Positions 1-17,324 of a stretch of DNA of 17,324 nucleotides are shown here, one piece after another. The position numbers and the translations under genes are program-made. The notes beneath the pieces are model-generated. The model had not been told where the DNA came from. It was given only the letters and a program-made list of their open reading frames with translations, and made no database searches. This stretch comes from a virus (taxonomy: Duplodnaviria > Heunggongvirae > Uroviricota > Caudoviricetes): IMG/VR virus record IMGVR_UViG_2693429706_000005, one strand, 5' to 3'. The first letter of the stretch is position 1; each line of letters begins with the position of its first letter.

Positions 1-1665
1 ATGTGTTCAATTTTTGGCGTATTCGATATCAAAACAGACGCAGTTGAGCTGCGTAAGAAAGCCCTCGAGCTGTCACGCCTGATGCGTCATCGTGGCCCGG
101 ACTGGTCCGGTATTTATGCCAGCGATAACGCCATTCTCGCCCACGAACGTCTGTCAATTGTTGACGTTAACGCGGGGGCGCAACCTCTCTACAACCAACA
201 AAAAACCCACGTACTGGCGGTAAACGGTGAAATCTACAACCACCAGGCATTGCGCGCCGAATATGGCGATCGTTACCAGTTCCAGACCGGGTCTGACTGT
301 GAAGTGATCCTCGCGCTGTATCAGGAAAAAGGGCCGGAATTTCTCGACGACTTGCAGGGCATGTTTGCCTTTGCACTGTACGACAGCGAAAAAGATGCCT
401 ACCTGATTGGTCGCGACCATCTGGGGATCATCCCACTGTATATGGGGTATGACGAACACGGTCAGCTGTATGTGGCCTCAGAAATGAAAGCGCTGGTGCC
501 AGTTTGCCGCACGATTAAAGAGTTCCCGGCGGGGAGCTATTTGTGGAGCCAGGACGGCGAAATCCGTTCTTACTATCATCGCGACTGGTTCGACTACGAT
601 GCGGTGAAAGATAACGTGACCGACAAAAACGAGCTGCGTCAGGCACTGGAAGATTCAGTTAAAAGCCATCTGATGTCTGATGTGCCTTACGGTGTGCTGC
701 TTTCTGGTGGTCTGGATTCCTCAATTATTTCCGCTATCACCAAGAAATACGCAGCCCGTCGCGTGGAAGATCAGGAACGCTCTGAAGCCTGGTGGCCGCA
801 GTTACACTCCTTTGCTGTAGGTCTGCCGGGTTCACCGGATCTGAAAGCAGCCCAGGAAGTGGCAAACCATCTGGGCACGGTGCATCACGAAATTCACTTC
901 ACTGTACAGGAAGGTCTGGATGCCATCCGCGACGTGATTTACCACATCGAAACTTATGATGTGACCACTATTCGCGCTTCAACACCGATGTATTTAATGT
1001 CGCGTAAGATCAAGGCGATGGGCATTAAAATGGTGCTGTCCGGTGAAGGTTCTGATGAAGTGTTCGGCGGTTATCTTTACTTCCACAAAGCACCGAATGC
1101 CAAAGAACTGCATGAAGAGACGGTGCGTAAACTGCTGGCCCTGCATATGTATGACTGCGCGCGTGCCAACAAAGCGATGTCAGCCTGGGGCGTGGAAGCA
1201 CGCGTTCCGTTCCTCGACAAAAAATTCCTTGATGTGGCGATGCGTATTAACCCACAGGATAAAATGTGCGGTAACGGCAAAATGGAAAAACACATCCTGC
1301 GTGAATGTTTTGAAGCGTATCTGCCTGCAAGCGTGGCCTGGCGGCAGAAAGAGCAGTTCTCCGATGGCGTCGGTTACAGTTGGATCGACACCCTGAAAGA
1401 AGTGGCTGCGCAGCAGGTTTCTGATCAGCAACTGGAAACTGCCCGCTTCCGCTTCCCGTACAACACGCCAACCTCTAAAGAAGCGTACTTGTATCGGGAG
1501 ATCTTTGAAGAACTATTCCCGCTTCCGAGCGCCGCTGAGTGCGTGCCGGGCGGTCCTTCCGTCGCTTGTTCTTCCGCTAAAGCGATCGAATGGGATGAAG
1601 CGTTCAAGAAAATGGACGATCCGTCTGGTCGCGCGGTTGGTGTTCACCAGTCGGCGTATAAGTAA
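1..1665 (+). CDS. asnB: Asparagine synthetase B (glutamine-hydrolysing), full length 554 aa
   Basis: ORF-track protein begins MCSIFGVFDIKTDAVELRKKALELSRLMRHRGPDWSG with the N-terminal Cys2 of class-II glutamine amidotransferases; recognised as E. coli AsnB; TAA stop at 1663-1665 followed by a hairpin terminator. Confidence 0.95.
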   Translation: MCSIFGVFDIKTDAVELRKKALELSRLMRHRGPDWSGIYASDNAILAHERLSIVDVNAGAQPLYNQQKTHVLAVNGEIYNHQALRAEYGDRYQFQTGSDCEVILALYQEKGPEFLDDLQGMFAFALYDSEKDAYLIGRDHLGIIPLYMGYDEHGQLYVASEMKALVPVCRTIKEFPAGSYLWSQDGEIRSYYHRDWFDYDAVKDNVTDKNELRQALEDSVKSHLMSDVPYGVLLSGGLDSSIISAITKKYAARRVEDQERSEAWWPQLHSFAVGLPGSPDLKAAQEVANHLGTVHHEIHFTVQEGLDAIRDVIYHIETYDVTTIRASTPMYLMSRKIKAMGIKMVLSGEGSDEVFGGYLYFHKAPNAKELHEETVRKLLALHMYDCARANKAMSAWGVEARVPFLDKKFLDVAMRINPQDKMCGNGKMEKHILRECFEAYLPASVAWRQKEQFSDGVGYSWIDTLKEVAAQQVSDQQLETARFRFPYNTPTSKEAYLYREIFEELFPLPSAAECVPGGPSVACSSAKAIEWDEAFKKMDDPSGRAVGVHQSAYK

Positions 1666-1707: not shown

Positions 1708-2044
1708 TATTGAGGTGCTTGTTGATTCTGATATGCAGTAAGGAAATGTTCCGGGTTTGCCACATCACTGTTTGACAACTCATCACTGTAGGCCAGTATT
1801 TCATAGATTAATTTCCCACCACTATTGTTAAATTCCGAATTTCATCCTGTATGACAAAAGAATGGCTGTAGGGTGGGAAAAAACACAAAGTAAACAATAA
1901 TTGACGAATATAGCGCCACGCTGTTCGCAACCTAACCAAACAGTCACTTTCGAGCAATTTTCCTTGAAAAAGAGGTTGACGCTGCAAGGCTCTATACGCA
2001 TAATGCGCCCCGCAACGCCGATAAGGTATCGCGAAAAAAAAGAT

Positions 2045-2121
2045 GGCTACGTAGCTCAGTTGGTTAGAGCACATCACTCATAATGATGGGGTCACAGGTT
2101 CGAATCCNNNNNNNNNNATCA
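2045..2121 (+). tRNA. Elongator tRNA-Met (anticodon CAU); 3' T-stem and acceptor strand masked by N
   Basis: ggctacgtagctcagttggttagagcacatcactcataatgatggggtcacaggttcgaatcc matches E. coli elongator tRNA-Met through the T-loop. The 10 N then occupy exactly the length expected for the remaining T-stem and acceptor strand, followed by atca where ACCA is expected. Confidence 0.8.
2108..2117. other. Run of 10 ambiguous bases (N) at the tRNA 3' end and prophage junction
   Basis: Directly visible in the sequence; may be masking or an assembly gap. Confidence 0.99.
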
Positions 2122-2185
2122 GACCAGAACGCCAATTACAAGCAAAAATCAACAAAACAGTATTAGTTGATTGTTATCTCTGACT

Positions 2186-2326
2186 TCATACTCCTGCTCC
2201 TGTCAGGGTTTTGGCGTAATTCTTCAGTATTCGGTAATCGGTCAAAACAGAACCGGGGAAACGATATAAGCGCAGACGCCCCCAGCGGTGGCGAAGACGT
2301 TCTGCCATATAAAACTCAAACATCAT
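2186..2326 (-). CDS. ylcG: YlcG-like small phage protein (46 aa)
   Basis: Minus-strand translation gives [46 protein letters not shown]; start ATG overlaps the rusA stop (ATGA); same position as ylcG after rusA in DLP12. Below the ORF-track size cutoff. Confidence 0.6.
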
Positions 2327-2685
2327 TCATTCCCCATTTCGGTGATGGTCAGTTCCAGCCTCCCACCTTTGGTAACAGGCATCTTCACAACGCGGTAATC
2401 AACGACCTGAGCATCATCCAGCCAGAAACCTGCTTTAGTGAGTGCGTCAAAAGCGGCTTTTTGCAGATTATCCAGGTCACGGCGACGGCGATCCGGCATG
2501 TGGCACTCAATGCGGATTTTCACAGGCATAGCCAGGCCGATATCCAGCATTGCGTTTTTAATGATTCGGGCGACGTTATCGCGGTATGCCTGCCCCTCTG
2601 CGCTGACGTGCGTGCGCCCGCGATTATGGCGGTAATAGCGATTATTGCTCGGAGGCCAGGGTAATGTGATGCTGTAGGTATTCAC
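2323..2685 (-). CDS. rusA: RusA Holliday-junction resolvase (120 aa)
   Basis: Protein [37 protein letters not shown]... recognised as E. coli/DLP12 RusA; sits in the nin region order. Confidence 0.9.
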
Positions 2686-2972
2686 GCCTTAATAACCCCC
2701 TCTTTCAGCCAGATAACCTGTGTTCTCGCCATACCTTCCAGCGCGCATTCTTTTGCATATGCAGCATCGACAAAATGTGTGCGGCGGTCGATTTCGTCGT
2801 GGCAGGCAGAACATGCAATGGTGGCAATCAGGTCTGGCGGTTTGGTACCGGTGCCGCACAATCCAGTCAGCCGGATATGTGCCAGTACAGACGTTTCAGG
2901 GTTGCCATTACATACGCCAGGGATTCTTACCTGGCATTCCCGACTACGCGCTGCTTTTCTCAAATCAGCCAT
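2682..2972 (-). CDS. ybcO: YbcO-like DUF1364 protein (putative nuclease, Cys-rich), 96 aa from internal ATG
   Basis: [42 protein letters not shown]... recalled as DLP12 YbcO; ATG at 2970-2972 is preceded by AGGAGG, while the longer track ORF (to 3011) has no such signal. Confidence 0.8.
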
Positions 2973-3135
2973 GATTCCTCCTTGCTGCCAGTCGCAACCA
3001 TTTTTTATCAACCAGGCTGGCGGTATATCCGAGCAGTGTTGGTATTTCGGAAGGCTTCAGCTCCGGTTTACGCTTACGACGATCTGGTACTCTGTAGATG
3101 TGTCCGTTCATGACACGAATAAGCGGTGTAGCCAT
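2965..3135 (-). CDS. ninE: NinE-like protein (56 aa)
   Basis: Minus-strand translation [56 protein letters not shown]; its ATG overlaps the ybcN stop; below the ORF-track size cutoff. Confidence 0.7.
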   Translation of the reverse strand: MATPLIRVMNGHIYRVPDRRKRKPELKPSEIPTLLGYTASLVDKKWLRLAARRNHG

Positions 3136-3590
3136 TACGCCTCCTGCTTGTCGCGGAGCAGCTGGAACTCGCAGCTCTGCGGAATAGTCAGGTGGCAGCC
3201 AATATTCACCGCCCAGGCTTCAACCTTACACAGGAAGACATACATCTCTCCGGTATCAAGATCGGAGGTATGGCGTAACGACTGGATAGTGGTGATATCA
3301 CCGGTTACGACATCAACCAGGTCTTTGGTTTCATAACCGAGATATGTGTGTTTGAGAGCATCTTTTACCCAAGCTGGAGTGGCGAACGTTTTACCCTTGC
3401 TGATGAGGTATTCACTGATTTCGCTGTACCACATGTGGCTGAGTGCATTCTGGGAAAGACTGCGTCTCTCGCGCCACGGTTTAAGCACCATGCGAAAGCA
3501 TTTGCCGTCCTCCAGATAAGGCTGGATCTGCCGACCGATAGCGGTGAAGTTACCGCGATGCAATTTGATACCATCTTGTGGGAGGTTCAC
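3135..3590 (-). CDS. ybcN: YbcN / NinB-family protein (151 aa)
   Basis: [55 protein letters not shown]... recalled as DLP12 YbcN; GTG start at 3588-3590 preceded by GGAGG. Confidence 0.85.
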
Positions 3591-5654: not shown

Positions 5655-5942
5655 CTACTCTCTTCCATATAAAGCCAACACCCGCTTCATCGCGGCACTT
5701 TGACGACACTCCTTAAAAATCAGATTCGTGCTCACCTTTCCTTCCCGTTCTTCTCTGGTAGCGAACCGGTAATACACCGTTCGCCAGACCTTACCATCAA
5801 CGACCAGGATTCCTGACCGCGCCATTTTAGCCGCAGCCTGATTTATGCTGGTTACGGTTGCGCCTGTTACCGCGGCAACGTCCTGCGCACAGAAGTTCTT
5901 ATGAGTCCCCAGGTAATGAATAATTGCCTCTTTGCCCGTCAT
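5655..5942 (-). CDS. ren: Ren-like protein (95 aa)
   Basis: MTGKEAIIHYLGTHKNFCAQDVAAVTGATVTSINQAAAKMARSGILVVDGKVWRTVYYRFATREEREGK... recalled as close to lambda Ren; its start overlaps the P stop as in lambda. Confidence 0.8.
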   Translation of the reverse strand: MTGKEAIIHYLGTHKNFCAQDVAAVTGATVTSINQAAAKMARSGILVVDGKVWRTVYYRFATREEREGKVSTNLIFKECRQSAAMKRVLALYGRE

Positions 5943-6640
5943 ACACTTGCTCCTTTCAGCCCAAACTTCGCTTTGATTTCTGCGATCTTCGCCAGAGCCT
6001 GAACACGATTAAGCGGTCTCCCGCCCATGACAGGAAGTTGTTTTACTGGTTCAGGTATCGCCTCACCACGGTTAATTCGCGCTGTCATACAGGCCAGTTC
6101 ATCGGCAGCCTTGCGCCGTAATTCCGCATCAGTCAGCGCATTGGCCCGCATGTTCTGATACAGGTTGGTAACCAGCCAGTAGTGCGCGTTTGATTTCCAC
6201 GGATAAGACTCTGCATCTGGATACAGGCCACGTTTCCGGCAATACTCGTAAACCATATCAACCAGCTCGCTGGCGTTTGGCAGCCCGGCGGTAACGGATG
6301 CTTCTTCCCGGCACCAGGCAACAAACTGCCCGGGTGATGGCAGGAATGGTCGATTCTGCCGACGGGCTACGCGCATTCCTGCGTTAACCTGTTCCATCGT
6401 GGTGATCCCGTTTTCCCGGAAAGCCAGAACCCACTGGCGGCGGATTTCGTTCAGTTCGTTCTGGTCCCGGTTAGCCAGGCTCGCCGGGAAAGTTGCCAGT
6501 AACTGGCTGAACACACCATTGATGATCTGCGCTACCTGTTGTACCTGCGGCTTTTCGTCGTACTGTTCCGGCATGTTGTTGGCGATCCGGCGCATCTGCT
6601 CACGGTCAAAGTTAACCATCTGTGCGGCGATGTTTTTCAT
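5939..6640 (-). CDS. P: Replication protein P (233 aa, DnaB helicase loader)
   Basis: MKNIAAQMVNFDREQMRRIANNMPEQYDEKPQVQQVAQIING... recalled as near-identical to lambda P; start overlaps the O stop (ATGA). Confidence 0.93.
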   Translation of the reverse strand: MKNIAAQMVNFDREQMRRIANNMPEQYDEKPQVQQVAQIINGVFSQLLATFPASLANRDQNELNEIRRQWVLAFRENGITTMEQVNAGMRVARRQNRPFLPSPGQFVAWCREEASVTAGLPNASELVDMVYEYCRKRGLYPDAESYPWKSNAHYWLVTNLYQNMRANALTDAELRRKAADELACMTARINRGEAIPEPVKQLPVMGGRPLNRVQALAKIAEIKAKFGLKGASV

Positions 6641-7566
6641 AAATCCACCCCGTAAATCCAGTCAGTGTTTGTCAGGTCGAGTTTTGATTTTCCGGCTATC
6701 ACGCCAGCCTGTTGCTTGTTACGGTTGATTTCGAGTTGGGTCCACTTGTCGCGGAGTTTGGCCGGACTTAGCACGTTACCGGACCAGAAGTTGTCCTGGC
6801 ATGCCCAGCGGAACAGCACGCACATGTCGCGGTGGTTACGGCCGTCACGTTCACGCATCAGGCGGATATCGTTAGCCCACCCTGCAAAATTCGGTTTTCT
6901 GGCTGATGGCGCGATGGTCTTCACCATGTCAAACATCCACTCTGCGGCGGTCAGGTCTTCTGCTGTCCCCCACCTGCTGCCGCTCTGAATTGCAGCATCT
7001 GGTTTCTCCACAGGAAGATCGTTTTCTGGTTGGTCAGAGGATTCGCCAGAATTCTCGGACGAAAAAGGTTTTATATTGTCTTTTGTTAGTTTGTATTTTG
7101 TGTTTACCTGATTCGGGTAAGTGCCTTTACCTGATTTGGGTAAACTTTTCTTACCTGATTCAGGTAAATTTACCTCTTTCAGGTAAACTTTATTTTTCTT
7201 ACCTGATTCGGGTAATGTTGACCATTCACTGACCACATTATTAATGCCGATATTCCGCCCGCTCTGAATAAAAATCCCACGCTTTACCAGAACACTTTTT
7301 GCAGCAGAACACTTGTGCGGCAATATCCCGGTCAACTCGGAAAGTTGCTCGTTGCTCACCCAATCCAGTTTTTTATTAAAGCCATATGTTTTGCGCATGA
7401 CAGCCAGGAAGACCAGAAGCTGGTGCTGTGTTAATCCGGCCAGCATCACAGCTTCCAGCAACTCATTTGCAATGCGCGTATAACCATCATCGAGATCTGC
7501 CACGCGCGGCTCCTTTTGTGCCGCATCCGGCACTGGAAAATTGAATATCTCAGCAGTGTTTGCCAT
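6637..7566 (-). CDS. O: Replication initiator O (about 309 aa from the ATG at 7566)
   Basis: Translation from the ATG at 7564-7566 (preceded by GGGAGG) gives MANTAEIFNFPVPDAAQKEPRVADLDDGY..., resembling the lambda O N-terminus; C-terminal region lambda O-like; iterons lie inside the gene. The track ORF extends upstream to 7656 but that extension has no RBS. Confidence 0.85.
   Translation of the reverse strand: MANTAEIFNFPVPDAAQKEPRVADLDDGYTRIANELLEAVMLAGLTQHQLLVFLAVMRKTYGFNKKLDWVSNEQLSELTGILPHKCSAAKSVLVKRGIFIQSGRNIGINNVVSEWSTLPESGKKNKVYLKEVNLPESGKKSLPKSGKGTYPNQVNTKYKLTKDNIKPFSSENSGESSDQPENDLPVEKPDAAIQSGSRWGTAEDLTAAEWMFDMVKTIAPSARKPNFAGWANDIRLMRERDGRNHRDMCVLFRWACQDNFWSGNVLSPAKLRDKWTQLEINRNKQQAGVIAGKSKLDLTNTDWIYGVDL
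7105..7215. repeat. Origin iterons (five direct repeats of about 16 bp, consensus tacctgattcgggtaa) inside O
   Basis: Copies at 7105-7120, 7128-7143, 7152-7167, 7171-7186 and 7200-7215 with one to three substitutions each, flanked by AT-rich DNA; matches the ori-lambda arrangement of iterons within O. Confidence 0.85.
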
Positions 7567-7652
7567 AATTCCTCCCGCAATGAGTGTGTTACGATTTGCA
7601 CCTGAAAGTCGGTTCTGTTCCCGCAGACCGACTTTCGCCATTTCTGAACCTG

Positions 7653-8192
7653 TCATATTGCCCCCAGCATGGTGGTCACCATCGCCATTAATGGACCAGC
7701 CAGATCCGGGTCCACACGAAACATCGACACAATACCTTCACTCATTTCCTTCAGTTTCTGGTGGCGTGGTGCGTTGAGAATGACAGCCTGTTTTGCCTCA
7801 CTGAGTTCCTTTTCCATTTCAGCCAACCGAGTCATGAAGCTATCCTGCTCAACCAGGTAACCGCGATATTCCAGCGGTAGTACCGCCAGAATTGCCGGGG
7901 TCAGTTCACGCACGTTATTTCGGTATTTTTCAGAATCGAATTTGTTATCGAGGAAGCGGAACAGCTTCTGGCGTGCACGGCTGACATCATCAGGGAAATC
8001 GATGGTGCCGTCGCCCTGCTCCCGATACTCATTCACAATGAGTGCGGCAACGACATCCTGATTATCTACAGCCGACCAGGCGCGGACGGCATCACGGATT
8101 TTTTCGTGGCCTGGAGCTTGTTTTGTTTGAGAACGATTTATCACCGCAGTCGGAATAAATCCGCTAGTCTGTTGGTATGTAAGTGGTTGCAT
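7653..8192 (-). CDS. YdaT-like protein in the cII position (179 aa)
   Basis: Strong RBS AAGGAG 6 nt upstream of the ATG at 8190-8192; lies between the cro-like gene and O; segment ELTPAILAVLPLEYR resembles the conserved motif I recall in Rac YdaT. Family assignment is from memory. Confidence 0.5.
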   Translation of the reverse strand: MQPLTYQQTSGFIPTAVINRSQTKQAPGHEKIRDAVRAWSAVDNQDVVAALIVNEYREQGDGTIDFPDDVSRARQKLFRFLDNKFDSEKYRNNVRELTPAILAVLPLEYRGYLVEQDSFMTRLAEMEKELSEAKQAVILNAPRHQKLKEMSEGIVSMFRVDPDLAGPLMAMVTTMLGAI

Positions 8193-8261
8193 AATTGACT
8201 CCTTTAGTTTGAATTGACTGTTAAGTTGATTGCTTATTGTTAAAGAGCGTGAAATGGAAAT

Positions 8262-8492
8262 TTAAGCTGCGTTCTTTTCGGTGTGTGGAAACAACTTCGG
8301 AAGATCCGGGCGAATCTGGTATGCCTTCACAACTCCACCAGTAGCCGTAACAATGCTGCCGACATGTTCAGGGGATACCTTTGCTTTGTTGTGAAGCCAC
8401 TTATAGACGGCCTGCTGTGAAACTTCGCAGGCATCGCCTAGTTTCTTTTGTGAACCAACGATATTGATCGCTGTTTTGATTGCTGGGTTCAT
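8262..8492 (-). CDS. Cro-like / YdaS-like HTH regulator (76 aa)
   Basis: Small HTH protein (…GSQKKLGDACEVSQQAVYKWLHNK…) transcribed divergently from the repressor gene; GGAGG RBS before the ATG at 8490-8492. Confidence 0.75.
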   Translation of the reverse strand: MNPAIKTAINIVGSQKKLGDACEVSQQAVYKWLHNKAKVSPEHVGSIVTATGGVVKAYQIRPDLPKLFPHTEKNAA

Positions 8493-8596
8493 AACAACCT
8501 CCGTGGTTAATCCGAATAAAGATTAAAACTATGGTTGTTTTTAGTCAACAACCATTTTCGTTTGATGAAATAAAACCTTGGTTGTACATTTGATCT
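8493..8596. promoter_or_regulatory. OR-like divergent promoter/operator region (pR leftward, pRM rightward)
   Basis: Inverted repeat atggttgtt…aacaaccat (8531-8555); -35 TTGACT on the minus strand (complement of 8543-8548) for the cro side; -35 TTGATG (8562-8567), 17-bp spacer, -10 TACATT (8585-8590) ending 6 nt before the repressor ATG, suggesting a leaderless repressor mRNA as in lambda pRM. Confidence 0.6.
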
Positions 8597-9286
8597 ATGA
8601 AAACAACACTCTCAGAAAGACTTAAAGAAGCCAGATTAGCGCGAGGCCTTACACAAAAGGCGCTTGGGGATTTGGTCGGGGTTAGCCAGGCTGCTATTCA
8701 GAAAATCGAAACAGGGAAAGCTAACCAAACAACTAAAATCGTGGAGATCGCGAACGCTTTGGGTGTGCGCGCAGAATGGTTATCTTCTGGCGTTGGAAAT
8801 ATGTCAGACAGTACAGTGCAACCAATACAATCAACTGTCAGCCATTCCAAATACTTCAAAATTGACGTTCTTGATATAGAAGTCAGTGCCGGGCCAGGTG
8901 TAATCAACCGTGAGTTTGTAGAAGTTCTACGCTCGGTTGAGTACTCGTTTGACGATGCTCGTCACATGTTCGATGGCAGGAAGGCGGAAAATATCCGCAT
9001 CATTAACGTGCGAGGTGACAGCATGTCAGGGACGATCGAACCAGGTGACCTGCTGTTCGTTGATATCACTGTTAAATCTTTCGACGGTGATGGCATCTAT
9101 GCGTTTCTGTACGACGACACTGCCCATGTAAAACGTCTTCAAATGATGAAGGATAAGCTGCTGGTTATCTCTGATAACAAGAGCTACTCGCCGTGGGACC
9201 CGATCGAGAAAGACGAGATGAACCGGGTGTTCATATTCGGTAAGGTCATTGGAAGCATGCCGCAGACGTACAGGAAGCATGGTTAA
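8597..9286 (+). CDS. CI-type prophage repressor (N-terminal HTH, C-terminal LexA-like S24 autopeptidase), 229 aa
   Basis: N-terminus LTQKALGDLVGVSQAAIQKIETGK (HTH); C-terminal domain with GDSM serine motif and a downstream Lys (…HVKRLQ…), typical of RecA-stimulated self-cleaving repressors. Not lambda cI by sequence. Confidence 0.9.
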   Translation: MKTTLSERLKEARLARGLTQKALGDLVGVSQAAIQKIETGKANQTTKIVEIANALGVRAEWLSSGVGNMSDSTVQPIQSTVSHSKYFKIDVLDIEVSAGPGVINREFVEVLRSVEYSFDDARHMFDGRKAENIRIINVRGDSMSGTIEPGDLLFVDITVKSFDGDGIYAFLYDDTAHVKRLQMMKDKLLVISDNKSYSPWDPIEKDEMNRVFIFGKVIGSMPQTYRKHG

Positions 9287-9515: not shown

Positions 9516-9896
9516 ATGAGAAAAATCCTAATCGCTGCCATGATGGCATCTGTATTGGCTGGGTGTGCTTCTTCAGGCAACCAGCAACTCAAAAATGAAA
9601 CTGAAATTAGTGTCCAGTCTAAACTTCAGGAAGGTAAAACAACCAAGAATGAGGTTAAATCTTACTTTGGTTCTCCTGATGCTGTTTCATATACTGACAG
9701 TGGAAACGAGATCTGGAAGTACGCCTTTGCAAAAGTAAAAGTTAATGGCACCACTTTTATTCCATTCTATGGATTATTCCATAATGGAACGAACGGTACG
9801 AAAAAAGAACTTACTATTCTTTTTAACGATGACACGATTAAGAAATACACAATGTCAGAAACCCAAATAAACTCGAAATCAGGTTGGGCTGACTGA
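9516..9896 (+). CDS. Predicted outer-membrane lipoprotein (126 aa), possibly SmpA/OmlA (BamE-like) fold, in the rex position
   Basis: Signal peptide MRKILIAAMMASVLAGC with lipobox LAGC and Ala at +2; pattern T..EV..YFGSPD…EIWKY.F resembles the BamE/SmpA-OmlA motif; AT-rich; consensus -10 TATAAT at 9495-9500; terminator follows. Confidence 0.7.
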   Translation: MRKILIAAMMASVLAGCASSGNQQLKNETEISVQSKLQEGKTTKNEVKSYFGSPDAVSYTDSGNEIWKYAFAKVKVNGTTFIPFYGLFHNGTNGTKKELTILFNDDTIKKYTMSETQINSKSGWAD

Positions 9897-10377: not shown

Positions 10378-10584
10378 ATGGTTCATCAACATTACGGAAC
10401 GCAGACCGTTAATCGCGGTGCGGTCATGCCAGGAATGCTGGTCAAACACAAAGATGGTACCTGGACTGCATCAGCTAATTTACGCGGACGGCTTTATCTG
10501 CATCGCGGCATCGAGCGCACTTATACCCGTGATTTGCTCGTAGAAGTTTTTCTCGACGGACGCGGTAACGGCCTGAATCACTAA
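10378..10584 (+). CDS. Kil-like small protein (68 aa; KilR-like, possible cell-division inhibitor)
   Basis: ATG at 10378 with AGGAG RBS 5 nt upstream; product [65 protein letters not shown] resembles my recollection of Rac KilR (…HEGRTYIASAN…LYIRN…VFLGRDG…); first gene after the pL-like promoter. Confidence 0.5.
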
Positions 10585-10659
10585 TCCCCTTTCCTGTTTT
10601 CCTAATCAGCCTGGCATTTCGCGGGCGATATTTTCACAGCCATTTTCAGGAGTTCAGCC

Positions 10660-10956
10660 ATGAACGCTTATTACATTCAGGATCGTCTTGAGGCTCAGAG
10701 CTGGGCGCGTCACTACCAGCAGATCGCCCGTGAAGAGAAAGAGGCAGAACTGGCAGACGACATGGAAAAAGGCCTGCCCCAGCACCTGTTTGAATCGCTA
10801 TGCATCGATCATTTGCAACGCCACGGGGTCAGCAAAAAAGCCATTACCCGTGCGTTTGATGACGATGTTGAGTTTCAGGAGCGCATGGCAGAACACATCC
10901 GGTACATGGTTGAAACCATTGCTCACCACCAGGTTGATATTGATTCAGAGGTATAA
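10660..10956 (+). CDS. gam: Gam (RecBCD inhibitor), 98-aa form
   Basis: [56 protein letters not shown]... recalled as lambda Gam; AGGAG RBS 7 nt upstream. Confidence 0.9.
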
Positions 10957-10961
10957 AACGG

Positions 10962-11747
10962 ATGAGTACAGCACTCGCAACGCTGGCTGGGAAGCTGGCT
11001 GAACGAGTCGGCATGGATTCTGTCGACCCACAGGAACTGATCACCACTCTTCGCCAGACGGCATTTAAAGGTGATGCCAGCGATGCGCAGTTCATCGCAT
11101 TGCTGATCGTCGCCAACCAGTACGGTCTTAATCCGTGGACGAAAGAAATTTACGCCTTCCCTGATAAGCAGAACGGCATCGTTCCGGTGGTGGGCGTTGA
11201 TGGCTGGTCCCGCATCATCAACGAAAACCAGCAGTTTGACGGCATGGACTTTGAACAGGACAACGAATCCTGCACATGCCGGATTTACCGCAAAGACCGC
11301 AATCATCCGATCTGCGTTACCGAGTGGATGGATGAATGCCGCCGCGAACCATTCAAAACCCGCGAAGGCAGAGAAATCACGGGGCCGTGGCAGTCGCATC
11401 CCAAACGGATGTTACGGCATAAAGCCATGATTCAGTGTGCCCGTCTGGCCTTCGGATTTGCTGGTATCTATGACAAGGATGAAGCCGAGCGCATTGTCGA
11501 AAATACTGCATACACTGCAGAACGTCAGCCGGAACGCGACATCACTCCGGTTAACGATGAAACCATGCAGGAGATTAACACTCTGCTGATCGCCCTGGAT
11601 AAAACATGGGATGACGACTTATTGCCGCTCTGTTCCCAGATATTTCGCCGCGACATTCGCGCATCGTCAGAACTGACACAGGCCGAAGCAGTGAAAGCTC
11701 TTGGATTCCTTAAACAGAAAGCCACTGAGCAGAAGGTGGCAGCATGA
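10962..11747 (+). CDS. bet: Bet (Red-beta single-strand annealing protein), 261 aa
   Basis: [66 protein letters not shown]... recalled as lambda Bet. Confidence 0.95.
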
Positions 11748-12424
11748 CACCGGACATTATCCTGCAGCGTACCGGGATCGACGTGAGAGTTGTCGAACAG
11801 GGGGATGATGCATGGCACAAATTACGGCTCGGCGTCATCACCGCTTCAGAAGTTCACAACGTGATAGCAAAGCCCCGCTCAGGAAAGAAGTGGCCTGACA
11901 TGAAAATGTCCTACTTCCACACCCTGCTGGCTGAGGTTTGCACCGGTGTGGCTCCGGAAGTTAATGCTAAGGCGCTGGCCTGGGGAAAACAGTACGAGAA
12001 CGACGCCAGAACCCTGTTTGAATTCACTTCCGGCGTGAATATTACTGAATCCCCGATCATCTATCGCGACGAAAATATGCGCACCGCCTGCTCTCCCGAT
12101 GGTTTATGCAGTGACGGCAACGGCCTTGAACTGAAATGCCCGTTTACCTCCCGGGATTTCATGAAATTCCGGCTCGGTGGTTTCGAGGCAATAAAATCGG
12201 CTTACATGGCCCAGGTGCAGTACAGCATGTGGGTGACGCGAAAAGATGCCTGGTACTTTGCCAACTATGACCCGCGCATGAAGCGTGAAGGCCTGCATTA
12301 CGTCGTGGTTGAGCGGAATGAAAAGTACATGGCGAGTTTTGACGAGATGGTGCCGGAGTTCATCGAAAAAATGGACGAGGCACTGGCTGAAATTGGTTTT
12401 GTATATGGGGAGCAATGGCAATGA
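11744..12424 (+). CDS. exo: Exo (lambda exonuclease, Red-alpha), 226 aa
   Basis: [64 protein letters not shown]... recalled as lambda Exo; start overlaps the bet stop. Confidence 0.95.
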
Positions 12425-12603
12425 AGCATCCTCACGATAATATCCGGGTAGGCGCGATCACTTTCGTCTACTCCGTTACAAAGCGAGGCTGGGTATTTCC
12501 CGGCCTTTCTGTTATCCGAAATCCGCTGAAAGCCCAGCGGCTGGCTGAGGAGATAAATAATAAACGGGGAGCTGTATGCACAAAGCATCTCCCGTTGAAT
12601 TAA
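12415..12603 (+). CDS. Small ea-region protein (62 aa), lambda orf60a-like
   Basis: Start overlaps the exo stop; same position as the small ORFs that follow exo in lambda; name assignment is from memory and uncertain. Confidence 0.55.
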
Positions 12604-12767
12604 GAACGAGTATCGAGATGGCACATAGCCTCGCTCAAATTGGAGTCAGGTTTGTGCCAATACCAGTAGAAACAGACGAAGAATTTCATACGTTAGCCGC
12701 ATCCCTTTCACAAAAGCTGGAAATGATGGTGGCGAAAGCAGAAGCAGATGAGAGAGACCAGGTATGA
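12576..12767 (+). CDS. Small ea-region protein (63 aa), lambda orf63-like
   Basis: ATG at 12576 with purine-rich upstream sequence; overlaps the neighbouring ORFs, consistent with a translationally coupled chain. Confidence 0.55.
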   Translation: MHKASPVELRTSIEMAHSLAQIGVRFVPIPVETDEEFHTLAASLSQKLEMMVAKAEADERDQV

Positions 12768-12843
12768 CAACCACTGAATGCATTTTTCTGGCAGCGGGCT
12801 TCATATTCTGTGTGCTTATGCTTGCCGACATGGGGCTTGTTCA

Positions 12844-13059
12844 ATGACACCTCAGCAAGAAAACGCCCTTCGCAGCATTGCCCGTCAGGCTAATTCTGAA
12901 ATCAAAAAAGCCAGACAGCAGTTTCCGGATAAAAACGTCGATGACATTTGCCGTAGCGTACTAAAGAAGCACCGCGAAACGGTAACGCTGATGGGATTCA
13001 CACCGACTCATTTAAGCCTGGCGATCGGCATGTTGAACGGCGTCTTTAAGGAACGGTGA
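12844..13059 (+). CDS. Small ea-region protein (71 aa from ATG at 12844)
   Basis: In-frame ATG at 12844 gives MTPQQENALRSIARQANSEIKKARQQFPDKNVDDICRSVLKKHRETVTLMGF...; the longer track ORF from 12778 has no better start signal. Confidence 0.45.
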   Translation: MTPQQENALRSIARQANSEIKKARQQFPDKNVDDICRSVLKKHRETVTLMGFTPTHLSLAIGMLNGVFKER

Positions 13060-13157
13060 ACATGAAAAGCAAAATCATCAGGGAGCTACAGGCTCCTTTT
13101 TTATTATTCGCATTCACCCTCAAGCGTATTAACCAACAATTCAGGGATTAATGAAAG

Positions 13158-13379
13158 ATGGCAGACATAATTGATTCAGCATCAGAAATTGAAGAATTAC
13201 AGCGCAACACAGCAATAAAAATGCGCCGCCTGAACCACCAGGCTATATCTGCCACTCATTGTTGTGAGTGTGGCGATCCGATAGATGAACGAAGACGACT
13301 GGCCGTTCAGGGTTGTCGGACTTGTGCCAGTTGCCAGCAAGATCTGGAGCTTATCAGTAAACAGAGAGGTTCGAAGTGA
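13158..13379 (+). CDS. TraR/DksA-family C4 zinc-finger protein (73 aa), lambda Orf73-like
   Basis: CCECGDPIDERRRLAVQGCRTCASCQ carries the C-x2-C…C-x2-C motif of TraR/DksA-type RNA-polymerase-binding proteins; position matches the lambda b-region TraR homologue. Confidence 0.7.
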   Translation: MADIIDSASEIEELQRNTAIKMRRLNHQAISATHCCECGDPIDERRRLAVQGCRTCASCQQDLELISKQRGSK

Positions 13380-13531
13380 GCGAAATTAACTAGAAGCCAA
13401 AGATAAAATCATCGCTGAGCAGGAGAAAATCGCTAACGGAGAAAAGACAGTAAGTCAGTATATGAAAACCGCATGATATCATCAGATAAAAATCGGTCGT
13501 AAAGCGAAATATTAATACCAGAACAAACGAG

Positions 13532-13555
13532 TCGAGGTAAATTATATTACCTCGA
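13532..13555 (-). terminator. Hairpin downstream of the minus-strand membrane-protein gene
   Basis: Perfect 9-bp inverted repeat tcgaggtaa (13532-13540) / ttacctcga (13547-13555) with loop attata, about 35 nt after the stop of the 13590..14192 ORF on the minus strand; a T-containing tract follows on that strand. Confidence 0.4.
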
Positions 13556-13589
13556 TAAATTAACTAAAACTTGCCCGCTATATACTATA

Positions 13590-14192
13590 TCATTCAGTAT
13601 CATCACGCGCGGTCTGTGCATATGTCACTACCGCACCTAATATATTAATTTTCTTTTCAACATAGATAATATTATCGTACTCATAATTGCCATACGGATA
13701 GCAAATGCGAATATTCTCATGTAGATCGGGGTCATCCACCTCAGCTCCAGAACAACTTTTTGAACTACCGGAAGTATACCGATACGGTGCAACGTAAGAC
13801 GATGTCTCTCCAGGCAAAAAATAAGTTAGTGTCGTAAGGGGTATAATCAGAAAAAATCCAGCAAATATGCACATCCCTGCATAAACCTTAAGGTATGCTG
13901 ACAGACTCTTCCAGCCGCTTTGTTTTACTATCCCCTTCTTAACCCAAAACAGAGATAACAGAAAAGCTATTCCCATGCTAAACAGAATGTAATAGTGGGA
14001 TATACTCTGATTAAGAAACGTGACCCTGTAGATATCTGCCCGCCACCAGAAGAAAAGGAAAATAAAGATCAGCCCTGAAACTGTCATGCAAATCAAATAA
14101 GGATACGAATCTTTTTTCATGTTTAGCGCCCATAAAATTTTTCCTGACCCGGACAAATTTACCATCCATTTTTTGCGCAGAAAATAGCTCAT
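13590..14192 (-). CDS. Hypothetical polytopic membrane protein (up to 200 aa; start uncertain), AT-rich island
   Basis: At least three strongly hydrophobic segments (LICMTVSGLIFIFLFFWW, YYILFSMGIAFLLSLFWV, VYAGMCIFAGFFLIIPLTTLTYFL) followed by a soluble C-terminal region of about 70 aa rich in Tyr, Ser and Cys; opposite strand to the surrounding early-left operon. Confidence 0.55.
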   Translation of the reverse strand: MSYFLRKKWMVNLSGSGKILWALNMKKDSYPYLICMTVSGLIFIFLFFWWRADIYRVTFLNQSISHYYILFSMGIAFLLSLFWVKKGIVKQSGWKSLSAYLKVYAGMCIFAGFFLIIPLTTLTYFLPGETSSYVAPYRYTSGSSKSCSGAEVDDPDLHENIRICYPYGNYEYDNIIYVEKKINILGAVVTYAQTARDDTE

Positions 14193-14590
14193 TACTTACT
14201 GCACAATAATACACAAAATTGCGTAAATTTTTTGCATGGATTTTAGCTCTTTCAGCCGACATTTAAGGGGTAAATAGCATTTCCTAAAAGCAACTGCACC
14301 AACCCAACAGAATGGGCTACCGCTTACGTTGAGAGCAAAAAAGTGTATAGCAGCAATGAACAGCATCCTCGCACTGACGAGGATTTCTTTTATCTGAACT
14401 CGCTACGGCGAGTTTTTTTATGGAGATGATAAATGCACTTCCGAGTCACAGGTGAATAGAATGGAGAACCATTCAACAGAGTTATCGAAGCCGAGAACAT
14501 CAGCGACTGCTATGACCACTGGATGCTGTGGGCGCAGATAGCACATGCAGACGTAACCAATATTCGAATTGAAGAACTGAAAGAACACCA

Positions 14591-14612
14591 AGCCGCCTGA
14601 TGGCGGTTTTTT
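14591..14612 (+). terminator. Hairpin plus T-run immediately upstream of xis
   Basis: agccgcc (14591-14597), loop tgat, ggcgg (14602-14606), then tttttt (14607-14612); 27 nt before the xis ATG. Confidence 0.55.
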
Positions 14613-14639
14613 CTTGCGTGTAATTGCGGAGACTTTGCG

Positions 14640-14858
14640 ATGTACTTGACACTTCAGGAGTGGAACGCTCGCCAGCGACGCCCAAGAAGCCTTGAAACAG
14701 TTCGTCGATGGGTGCGCGAATGCAGGATATTCCCTCCTCCGGTTAAGGATGGAAGAGAATATCTGTTCCACGAATCAGCGGTAAAGGTTGACTTAAATCG
14801 ACCAGTAACAGGTAGCCTTTTGAAGAGGATCAGAAATGGGAAGAAGGCGAAGTCATGA
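14640..14858 (+). CDS. xis: Excisionase Xis (72 aa)
   Basis: MYLTLQEWNARQRRPRSLETVRRWVRECRIFPPPVKDGREYLFHESAVKVDLNRPVTG... recalled as lambda Xis; overlaps the int start as in lambda. Confidence 0.95.
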   Translation: MYLTLQEWNARQRRPRSLETVRRWVRECRIFPPPVKDGREYLFHESAVKVDLNRPVTGSLLKRIRNGKKAKS

Positions 14859-15906
14859 GCGCCGGGATTTACCCCCTAACCTTTATATAAGAAACAATGG
14901 ATATTACTGCTACAGGGACCCAAGGACGGGTAAAGAGTTTGGATTAGGCCGAGACAGGCGAATCGCAATCACTGAAGCTATACAGGCCAACATTGAGTTA
15001 TTTTCAGGACACAAACACAAGCCTCTGACAGCGAGAATCAACAGTGATAATTCCGTTACGTTACATTCATGGCTTGATCGCTACGAAAAAATCCTGGCCA
15101 GCAGAGGAATCAAGCAGAAGACACTCATAAATTACATGAGCAAAATTAAAGCAATAAGGAGGGGTCTGCCTGATGCTCCACTTGAAGACATCACCACAAA
15201 AGAAATTGCGGCAATGCTCAATGGATACATAGACGAGGGCAAGGCGGCGTCAGCCAAGTTAATCAGATCAACACTGAGCGATGCATTCCGAGAGGCAATA
15301 GCTGAAGGCCATATAACAACAAACCCTGTCGCTGCCACTCGCGCAGCAAAATCAGAGGTAAGGAGATCAAGACTTACGGCTGACGAATACCTGAAAATTT
15401 ATCAAGCAGCAGAATCATCACCATGTTGGCTCAGACTTGCAATGGAACTGGCTGTTGTTACCGGGCAACGAGTTGGTGATTTATGCGAAATGAAGTGGTC
15501 TGATATCGTAGATGGATATCTTTATGTCGAGCAAAGCAAAACAGGCGTAAAAATTGCCATCCCAACAACATTGCATGTTGATGCTCTCGGGATATCAATG
15601 AAGGAAACACTTGATAAATGCAAAGAGATTCTTGGCGGAGAAACCATAATTGCATCTACTCGTCGCGAACCGCTTTCATCCGGCACAGTATCAAGGTATT
15701 TTATGCGCGCACGAAAAGCATCAGGTCTTTCCTTCGAAGGGGATCCGCCTACCTTTCACGAGTTGCGCAGTTTGTCTGCAAGACTCTATGAGAAGCAGAT
15801 AAGCGATAAGTTTGCTCAACATCTTCTCGGGCATAAGTCGGACACCATGGCATCACAGTATCGTGATGACAGAGGCAGGGAGTGGGACAAAATTGAAATC
15901 AAATAA
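14836..15906 (+). CDS. int: Tyrosine integrase Int (356 aa)
   Basis: MGRRRSHERRDLPPNLYIRNNGYYCYRDPRTGKEFGLGRDRRIAITEAIQ... recalled as lambda Int, full length; C-terminal catalytic region present (…HELRSLSARLYEKQ…LLGHKSDTMASQYRDD…). Confidence 0.95.
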   Translation: MGRRRSHERRDLPPNLYIRNNGYYCYRDPRTGKEFGLGRDRRIAITEAIQANIELFSGHKHKPLTARINSDNSVTLHSWLDRYEKILASRGIKQKTLINYMSKIKAIRRGLPDAPLEDITTKEIAAMLNGYIDEGKAASAKLIRSTLSDAFREAIAEGHITTNPVAATRAAKSEVRRSRLTADEYLKIYQAAESSPCWLRLAMELAVVTGQRVGDLCEMKWSDIVDGYLYVEQSKTGVKIAIPTTLHVDALGISMKETLDKCKEILGGETIIASTRREPLSSGTVSRYFMRARKASGLSFEGDPPTFHELRSLSARLYEKQISDKFAQHLLGHKSDTMASQYRDDRGREWDKIEIK

Positions 15907-15979: not shown

Positions 15980-15994
15980 TTAGTATAAAAAAGC
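15980..15994. other. Lambda attachment core (prophage-host junction, attL-type B-O-P')
   Basis: Reverse complement of 15980-15994 is gcttttttatactaa, the 15-bp lambda core; the int-proximal side (15903-15979) matches the phage P' arm as I recall it (…gttggcattataaaaaagcattgcttatcaatttgttgcaacgaacaggtcactatcagtcaaaataaaatcatt…) and the ybhC side is the bacterial arm. Confidence 0.85.
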
Positions 15995-16040: not shown

Positions 16041-17324
16041 GTGAACACATTTTCAGTTTCCCGTCTGGCGCTGGCATTGGCTTTTGGCGTGACGCTGACC
16101 GCCTGTAGCTCAACCCCGCCCGATCAACGTCCTTCTGATCAAACCGCGCCTGGTACCTCTTCTCGCCCGATTCTGTCGGCAAAAGAAGCGCAGAATTTCG
16201 ATGCTCAACACTATTTTGCATCCCTGACACCAGGTGCTGCAGCGTGGAATCCTTCCCCGATTACCCTGCCTGCGCAACCTGACTTTGTTGTCGGCCCGGC
16301 GGGCACTCAAGGTGTAACGCATACCACGATTCAGGCGGCGGTAGATGCGGCAATTATCAAGCGTACCAACAAGCGCCAGTATATTGCCGTGATGCCTGGT
16401 GAGTATCAGGGAACGGTATATGTCCCTGCCGCTCCGGGTGGAATTACTCTGTACGGTACAGGTGAAAAACCGATTGATGTGAAGATTGGGCTTTCCCTTG
16501 ATGGTGGCATGAGCCCTGCCGACTGGCGTCACGACGTCAACCCGCGCGGCAAATATATGCCAGGTAAACCAGCGTGGTATATGTACGATAGCTGCCAGAG
16601 CAAACGCAGCGACAGTATCGGTGTTCTCTGCTCTGCGGTCTTCTGGTCACAAAACAATGGCCTGCAACTGCAAAATCTGACCATCGAAAACACGCTGGGC
16701 GATAGCGTAGATGCAGGTAACCATCCGGCGGTGGCACTGCGTACTGATGGTGACCAGGTACAGATTAACAACGTTAACATTCTCGGTCGTCAGAACACCT
16801 TCTTTGTCACCAACAGCGGTGTGCAGAACCGTCTGGAAACGAATCGTCAGCCGCGTACGCTGGTGACCAACAGCTACATTGAAGGGGATGTGGATATCGT
16901 TTCTGGTCGCGGCGCAGTGGTGTTCGATAACACCGAATTCCGCGTGGTGAACTCACGTACTCAGCAAGAAGCGTATGTGTTTGCACCGGCTACGCTGTCC
17001 AACATTTACTACGGTTTCCTCGCCGTAAACAGCCGTTTCAATGCTTTCGGTGATGGTGTGGCGCAACTGGGCCGCTCGCTGGATGTTGATGCCAATACCA
17101 ACGGTCAGGTGGTGATCCGTGATAGCGCCATCAACGAAGGTTTTAACACGGCTAAACCGTGGGCCGATGCGGTGATCTCTAATCGTCCGTTTGCGGGTAA
17201 TACCGGCAGCGTAGATGATAACGACGAAATACAGCGCAATCTGAATGACACTAACTACAACCGCATGTGGGAATACAATAACCGCGGCGTGGGTAGTAAA
17301 GTGGTTGCAGAGGCGAAGAAGTAA
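16041..17324 (+). CDS. ybhC: YbhC, outer-membrane lipoprotein of the pectinesterase-like family (427 aa)
   Basis: GTG start; signal peptide with lipobox LTAC; recognised as E. coli YbhC, the gene flanking attB-lambda on the gal side; TAA stop at the window end. Confidence 0.88.
   Translation: MNTFSVSRLALALAFGVTLTACSSTPPDQRPSDQTAPGTSSRPILSAKEAQNFDAQHYFASLTPGAAAWNPSPITLPAQPDFVVGPAGTQGVTHTTIQAAVDAAIIKRTNKRQYIAVMPGEYQGTVYVPAAPGGITLYGTGEKPIDVKIGLSLDGGMSPADWRHDVNPRGKYMPGKPAWYMYDSCQSKRSDSIGVLCSAVFWSQNNGLQLQNLTIENTLGDSVDAGNHPAVALRTDGDQVQINNVNILGRQNTFFVTNSGVQNRLETNRQPRTLVTNSYIEGDVDIVSGRGAVVFDNTEFRVVNSRTQQEAYVFAPATLSNIYYGFLAVNSRFNAFGDGVAQLGRSLDVDANTNGQVVIRDSAINEGFNTAKPWADAVISNRPFAGNTGSVDDNDEIQRNLNDTNYNRMWEYNNRGVGSKVVAEAKK

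Follow-up and report, generated by a model that had tools for sequence, protein, structure and literature searches.

The window analysed here, a stretch of 17,324 nucleotides filed as a virus record, puts the chromosomal genes asnB and metT next to the nin region of a lambda-type prophage, with a short run of Ns between them. The question is whether this adjacency exists in the chromosome of the source strain. The original prediction had read it as an abrupt truncation, produced by a deletion or inversion with one endpoint inside the prophage or by a mis-join at the N run. We consider it highly probable that the join between metT and the prophage is a scaffolding or concatenation artefact in the draft record, and that there is neither a truncated prophage nor a rearrangement. 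The features of the window are collected in Table 1. The window starts at the asnB start codon and stops at the ybhC stop codon, and it seems to have been cut along gene boundaries rather than at arbitrary coordinates.

Table 1. Features of the window, numbered from its first base
Feature	Position	Strand	Remarks
asnB (asparagine synthase B), complete	1-1665	+	ORF; 100% identical to K-12 MG1655; left contig
metT, first 63 nt of the 77-nt elongator tRNA-Met gene	2045-2107	+	Identical to K-12 metT; left contig end
N run, very probably a scaffold gap between two contigs	2108-2117		Exactly 10 N; also in JRSK01000097.1
ylcG-quuD phage intergenic spacer	2118-2185	-	100% matches in complete genomes; right contig start
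ylcG	2186-2326	-	nin region; stop codon 68 bp from N run
rusA	2323-2685	-	nin region
ybcO	2682-2972	-	nin region
ninE	2965-3135	-	nin region
ybcN	3135-3590	-	nin region
Cargo ORF, 472 aa	3866-5284	+	Variable ren-ybcN slot; no Pfam family
Replication and immunity genes ren, P, O, YdaT-like, YdaS/Cro-like	within 5655-9286	-
O	6637-7656	-
CI-like S24 repressor	8597-9286	+
126-aa ORF	9516-9896	+
Early-left genes kil, gam, bet, exo, DUF1317, DUF1382, TraR-like	within 10378-15906	+
200-aa ORF	13590-14192	-	No Pfam family
xis	14640-14858	+	Excisionase PF07825; just upstream of int
int, lambda-type	14836-15906	+	PF00589 (1.7e-40), PF09003 (7.1e-33); arm-binding domain
lambda att core, GCTTTTTTATACTAA on the - strand	15980-15994	-	int-side junction, attL
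ybhC, host flank of attB-lambda	16041-17324	+	Identical to K-12

The two flanks and their geometry

Positions 1-2107, the left part of the window, match K-12 MG1655 and many other strains at 100% identity. A promoter-bearing spacer separates asnB from metT, and in a search with the left half asnB was followed by tRNA-Met in 5,425 of the 5,426 complete E. coli genomes. The genes that come after metT in K-12 are leuW, glnU, glnW, metU, glnV and glnX; metU lies about 400 bp downstream of metT and is identical to it over all 77 nt, the flanks of the two genes being different. The window's metT is unremarkable, being the gene with which the metT-leuW-gln tRNA operon normally begins. An Rfam search gave a tRNA match at 2052-2110 with 34.4 bits. 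ARAGORN reported zero tRNAs on the window, because the 3′ strand of the tRNA acceptor is represented by Ns. The distance of about 70 bp that had been predicted between ylcG, the end of the nin cluster, and the masked tRNA-Met gene behind asnB agrees with the arrangement measured: 68 bp from ylcG to the N run, then 10 N and the 63 nt of metT.

At the other end of the window the att core appears as its reverse complement, TTAGTATAAAAAAGC, between int and ybhC. Identity with K-12 starts right at the core and continues with 0 mismatches over 1,345 nt, through the end of ybhC. A lambda att core beside ybhC had been recognised in the original prediction, and the sequence bears this out: the 15-bp core lies exactly at the boundary, and genes for a lambda-family tyrosine integrase and Xis lie close to it, as is characteristic of lambda-type integration at attB-lambda. 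At least 80% of the prophage is present at ybhC in 278 complete genomes. The second core, attR next to ybhB, would lie outside the window, past the contig end. Prophages of this lambda type are common, the present one occupies its usual site, and the picture of E. coli biology stays as it was.

The relative positions of the two flanks were compared with those in the K-12 record CP032667, where ybhC (3,074,300-3,075,583) and asnB (3,182,404-3,184,068) are both on the + strand, ybhC comes first and the two are 107 kb apart, in agreement with the predicted large distance. In the window asnB and ybhC are again both on the + strand, but asnB comes first, so that the order is swapped relative to K-12. 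The order expected in a lysogen would be ybhB-attR-late genes-quuD-ylcG...int-attL-ybhC-107 kb-asnB-metT. If a deletion or inversion had one endpoint inside the prophage and left a cryptic prophage that lacks Q, lysis and structural genes, this would account for the finding that no Q, lysis or morphogenesis genes lie inside the window, and relatives that seem to be genuinely truncated are found elsewhere (L007 and L019, among others, in which quuD is followed by non-phage genes). The geometry is, however, wrong for either event. A single inversion is excluded because it would flip the relative orientation of asnB and ybhC, and a single deletion because it cannot put asnB-metT upstream of the prophage. 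The interval between asnB and ybhC in K-12 presumably also holds essential genes, such as glnS, which a deletion would lose. Together with the evidence from complete genomes and sister assemblies given below, this makes a deletion or inversion extremely unlikely. The geometry fits only the joint of a tandem duplication or circle, or a mis-join.

The N run and the bases beyond it

The window contains a single N run, at the boundary between metT and the prophage. The first bases to its right, atcagacc..., are the start of ATCAGACC. In intact relatives (L001) this stretch stands in the context ...cgCATcaacttactccacaaaa|ATCAGACC, in which CAT is the start codon, on the - strand, of quuD, the gene for the Q antiterminator. 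Judged by these relatives, the right contig begins about 17-18 nt upstream of the quuD start codon, and the right half matched complete genomes at 100% from its first base (query position 519, window position 2118). The original prediction had pointed out that the sequence after the Ns reads atca instead of ACCA. The difference is there, but as the same spacer sits beside quuD in complete genomes, atca belongs to the phage ylcG-quuD spacer and is not an altered tRNA CCA end. It had also proposed aligning 2118-2185 with related genomes, so as to tell phage sequence from tRNA spacer; the alignment identified it as phage, namely the ylcG-quuD spacer at 100%.

These results bear on a reading in which the phage integrated at the metT 3′ end, the Ns hiding an overlap of tRNA and att site and atca being a variant end supplied by the phage. 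The break does fall within the T-arm and acceptor region of metT, and tRNA 3′ ends are the target of many temperate phages. However, int and the complete lambda core are at the opposite end, by ybhC, and the bases after the Ns are phage interior, before which intact phages have quuD instead of a tRNA fragment. Among the 5,425 genomes with the asnB-tRNA-Met arrangement, moreover, none has this prophage sequence adjacent to it. Integration at metT is thus scarcely conceivable.

The two halves of the window were found within about 1 kb of each other in none of the 5,426 complete E. coli genomes, which also argues against a deletion or inversion. A gapped exact pattern, metT followed after 0-30 nt by the spacer, gave no match in species-representative genomes (185,579 species).

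Sister assemblies and the origin of the contig ends

The window is identical to part of the NCBI record JRSK01000097.1 (GCA_001413755.1, locus L008), with 0 mismatches over the 15,284 nt compared, N run included, and the gene order there, nagE-nagBACD-asnB followed across the gap by ylcG, is that of the window. The N run was therefore deposited in JRSK01000097.1. This bears on the idea that the Ns are a mask laid by the provider over 10 real bases between contiguous flanks, which takes its motive from a sequence collection's description that mentions a few stretches masked as N. The same 10 N stand in the NCBI record, the 10-N runs of the sister assemblies described below lie at other coordinates with non-syntenic flanks, and contiguous flanks occur in no complete genome; we hold a mask to be vanishingly improbable.

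JRSK01000097.1 and four related records come from assemblies of E. coli RU1 lines BHI4, LB5, LB9, LB10 and LB12 (table in PMC9638481). The RU1 LB and BHI lines belong to the evolution experiment of Saxer et al. 2014 (PMC4263409), in which they were read as whole populations with 100-bp paired-end Illumina sequencing; PMC4263409 gives no account of how the deposited scaffolds were made. BHI4 is the line of the window, and the sisters are JRRZ01000113.1 (L013, LB5), JRSD01000246.1 (L009, LB9), JRSE01000171.1 (L012, LB10) and JRSG01000010.1 (L023, LB12). The records were recovered among the matches listed for contigs encoding the 472-aa or the 126-aa ORF of the window. For L008 there is one more similar place beyond those listed, which may be the same join in a GenBank/RefSeq twin or in another line. 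K-12 itself was considered as the source and ruled out, since the nag-asnB side differs from it by 9 mismatches in 4,607 nt; the asnB-metT and att-ybhC stretches show no difference from K-12.

The prophage is the same in all five lines. LB5, LB9 and LB10 showed 0 mismatches to JRSK01000097.1 over 13,167 nt from the anchor, and LB12 showed 0 mismatches to the window over 15,207 nt. In the 20-21 kb retrieved from each record there was one N run, always of 10 N and always at the quuD-side end of the prophage (5/5 records). The partner across the Ns was different each time: asnB-metT in BHI4, gltP with a REP-like element in LB5, yhdP with a REP-like element in LB9, the upstream region of nanR in LB10, and fhuF-yjjZ in LB12. 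The REP-like elements at the LB5 and LB9 contig ends are putative assignments from sequence. None of the five records contains sequence that reads through the joint; there are only the 10 N. It is not credible that lines separated by a few hundred generations underwent five independent illegitimate rearrangements within 64 nt, all of them behind exactly 10 N.

In the four sisters the prophage contig is 58-64 nt longer on the left than in the window. The extra stretch consists of 17 nt of spacer and, from the ATG on, 41-47 nt of quuD, and is identical to intact prophages; the gene caller reports a 16-residue Phage_antitermQ fragment at the contig end. As four clonal sisters carry the 5′ end of quuD, the prophage does not lack Q, and the contig simply ends there. 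The predicted absence of Q, lysis and morphogenesis genes thus holds within the window but does not extend to a loss of Q from the prophage, and the term truncation has to be given up: the end of the prophage is a contig end, with no deletion endpoint. Of the two origins proposed for the adjacency, the mis-join is supported by five sisters with five partners, and the deletion or inversion, already at odds with the geometry, is further contradicted by the quuD 5′ end in the four sisters and by the lack of any sequenced joint.

One kind of real event agrees with the geometry. A tandem duplication or excised circle of about 125 kb, extending from the ylcG-quuD spacer through ybhC to metT and present in a sub-population of BHI4, would give asnB and ybhC co-oriented in swapped order, which is the signature of a duplication joint; duplications can arise in evolved populations such as those sampled. 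On this reading, genuine read pairs over an illegitimate joint of metT and phage would underlie the link made by the scaffolder. A unique new joint would, however, have been assembled through, without Ns. Four clonal sisters join the same contig end to four other loci, so that five independent events within 64 nt would be needed, and, judged from K-12, both ends would lie in repeats. We judge such a duplication or circle to be very unlikely. Prophage-mediated inversions and duplications, such as those at the lambdoid prophages of O157:H7, would likewise bring prophage interior next to distant DNA. In finished genomes, sequence runs across the joints of such events, which fall in homology that the phages share; in the window, by contrast, a tRNA gene stands beyond the Ns, and each sister assembly has another partner.

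The artefact would be explained as follows. Two separate contigs would have been joined with a fixed 10-N spacer by the submitter's pipeline. The first contig (nagE...asnB) would halt 63 nt into metT, an exact repeat of metU in K-12. The second, which carries the ordinary lambda-type prophage at attB-lambda beside ybhC, breaks off where ylcG gives way to quuD; the most likely cause is that the genome has more than one copy of the quuD region. Repeat collapse would thus lie behind both contig ends, and the scaffolding step that followed would have been arbitrary or mistaken. It is almost certain that the prophage in the real chromosome runs on into quuD, the lysis genes and beyond, and that metT runs on into leuW-glnU..., as in all other E. 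coli; the true distance between the two contig ends would be about 107 kb plus the prophage. We infer these true neighbours in BHI4 from the sisters and from other genomes.

The repeat content of K-12 is compatible with this explanation. The K-12 prophage DLP12 is identical to the prophage from quuD to window position 2297, positions 2298 and 2311 being the earliest that differ, and in the complete-genome set there are up to five copies of quuD per genome. If RU1 carries a DLP12-like element, reads of 100 bp cannot bridge the quuD-ylcG repeat, which would explain why the contigs break within 64 nt in all five assemblies. Both repeats, metT = metU and quuD-ylcG = DLP12, are judged from K-12. 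The join shows a fixed-length N run, flanks that are not neighbours elsewhere and sister assemblies that disagree on the partner, as do the 10-N scaffold gaps or contig concatenations of short-read drafts, from which nothing substantive differs here. It would also resemble scaffold gaps at collapsed repeats, the left end being in the metT/metU repeat (in K-12) and the right end in the quuD-ylcG segment shared with DLP12.

Two further explanations were tried and rejected. A fixed k-mer overhang as the cause of the contig ends is suggested by the 63 nt in metT and the 58-64 nt in the sisters, but the length is not constant. Microhomology at the joint (tRNA ...AATCC against phage ...ACTCC) would need 6 hidden bases, not 10, and is moot given the sisters.

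JRSK01000097.1 is 1.28 Mb long and JRSD01000246.1 4.39 Mb, in assemblies with at least 97 and at least 246 records, respectively. Such megabase sizes from 100-bp population reads suggest that contigs were chained with 10-N spacers throughout the RU1 assemblies, and other apparent rearrangements in them should be distrusted. More generally, fixed-length N runs in draft bacterial records can mimic prophage truncations, deletions and tRNA-site integrations, and in scans for degraded prophages or rearrangements sequences should be broken at N runs.

Content of the prophage and its relatives

The prophage resembles the lambda-type prophages at ybhC/ybhB (lambda, PhiR26_1, mEp332 and 4A7) in its 15-bp core, Int, xis, exo-bet-gam, CI/Cro-type immunity, O/P and nin region. 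PhiR26_1, mEp332 and similar phages have 49-62% of the prophage in common, at 96-98% identity. In contrast to these phages it is a mosaic with a DLP12-type nin/Q module (ybcN-ninE-ybcO-rusA-ylcG-quuD), YdaS/YdaT-type genes in place of cro/cII, and strain-specific cargo genes. Beyond the quuD-ylcG identity, the rest of the DLP12 nin region is closely related to that of the window. DLP12 itself lies at argU, encodes IntD and is genuinely defective, whereas the present prophage is at attB-lambda and its apparent truncation is a contig end.

True truncations near Q seem to occur among relatives in some finished genomes, with sequence that reads through. In both L007 (CP086678.1) and L019 (JBPQGC010000001.1) a 125-aa quuD is followed by a lipocalin gene, and L007 also has a 2-thiouracil desulfurase-like gene and IS elements beyond quuD.

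PADLOC gave a weak match (E = 1e-9) between residues 83-334 of the 472-aa ORF and HEC-07, a candidate defence protein; the C-terminus of the ORF matches a PHROG without known function. In related prophages the ren-ybcN slot is occupied by PD-lambda-1, DUF4041, the YbcK recombinase, a 631-aa NACHT protein, a SNIPE/T5orf172 protein, TagO/VasI or a HEPN pair. The slot looks like a hot spot for defence or cargo genes.

The 126-aa ORF occupies the place that rexAB has in lambda, between the CI-type repressor gene and kil. Besides a match to phrog_3135 (unknown function, E = 3e-48) it gave a sub-threshold BamE-like match, and it is very widespread, with 6,772 blocks in the index. The 200-aa ORF, between the TraR-like gene and xis, was found in only some relatives of the prophage; over the last 88 residues it matches phrog_1416 (E = 7e-51), a family of unknown function. 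The O protein is 339 aa long when read from the first ATG, against 309 aa as called by the gene caller in several records, and this looks like start-site ambiguity only.
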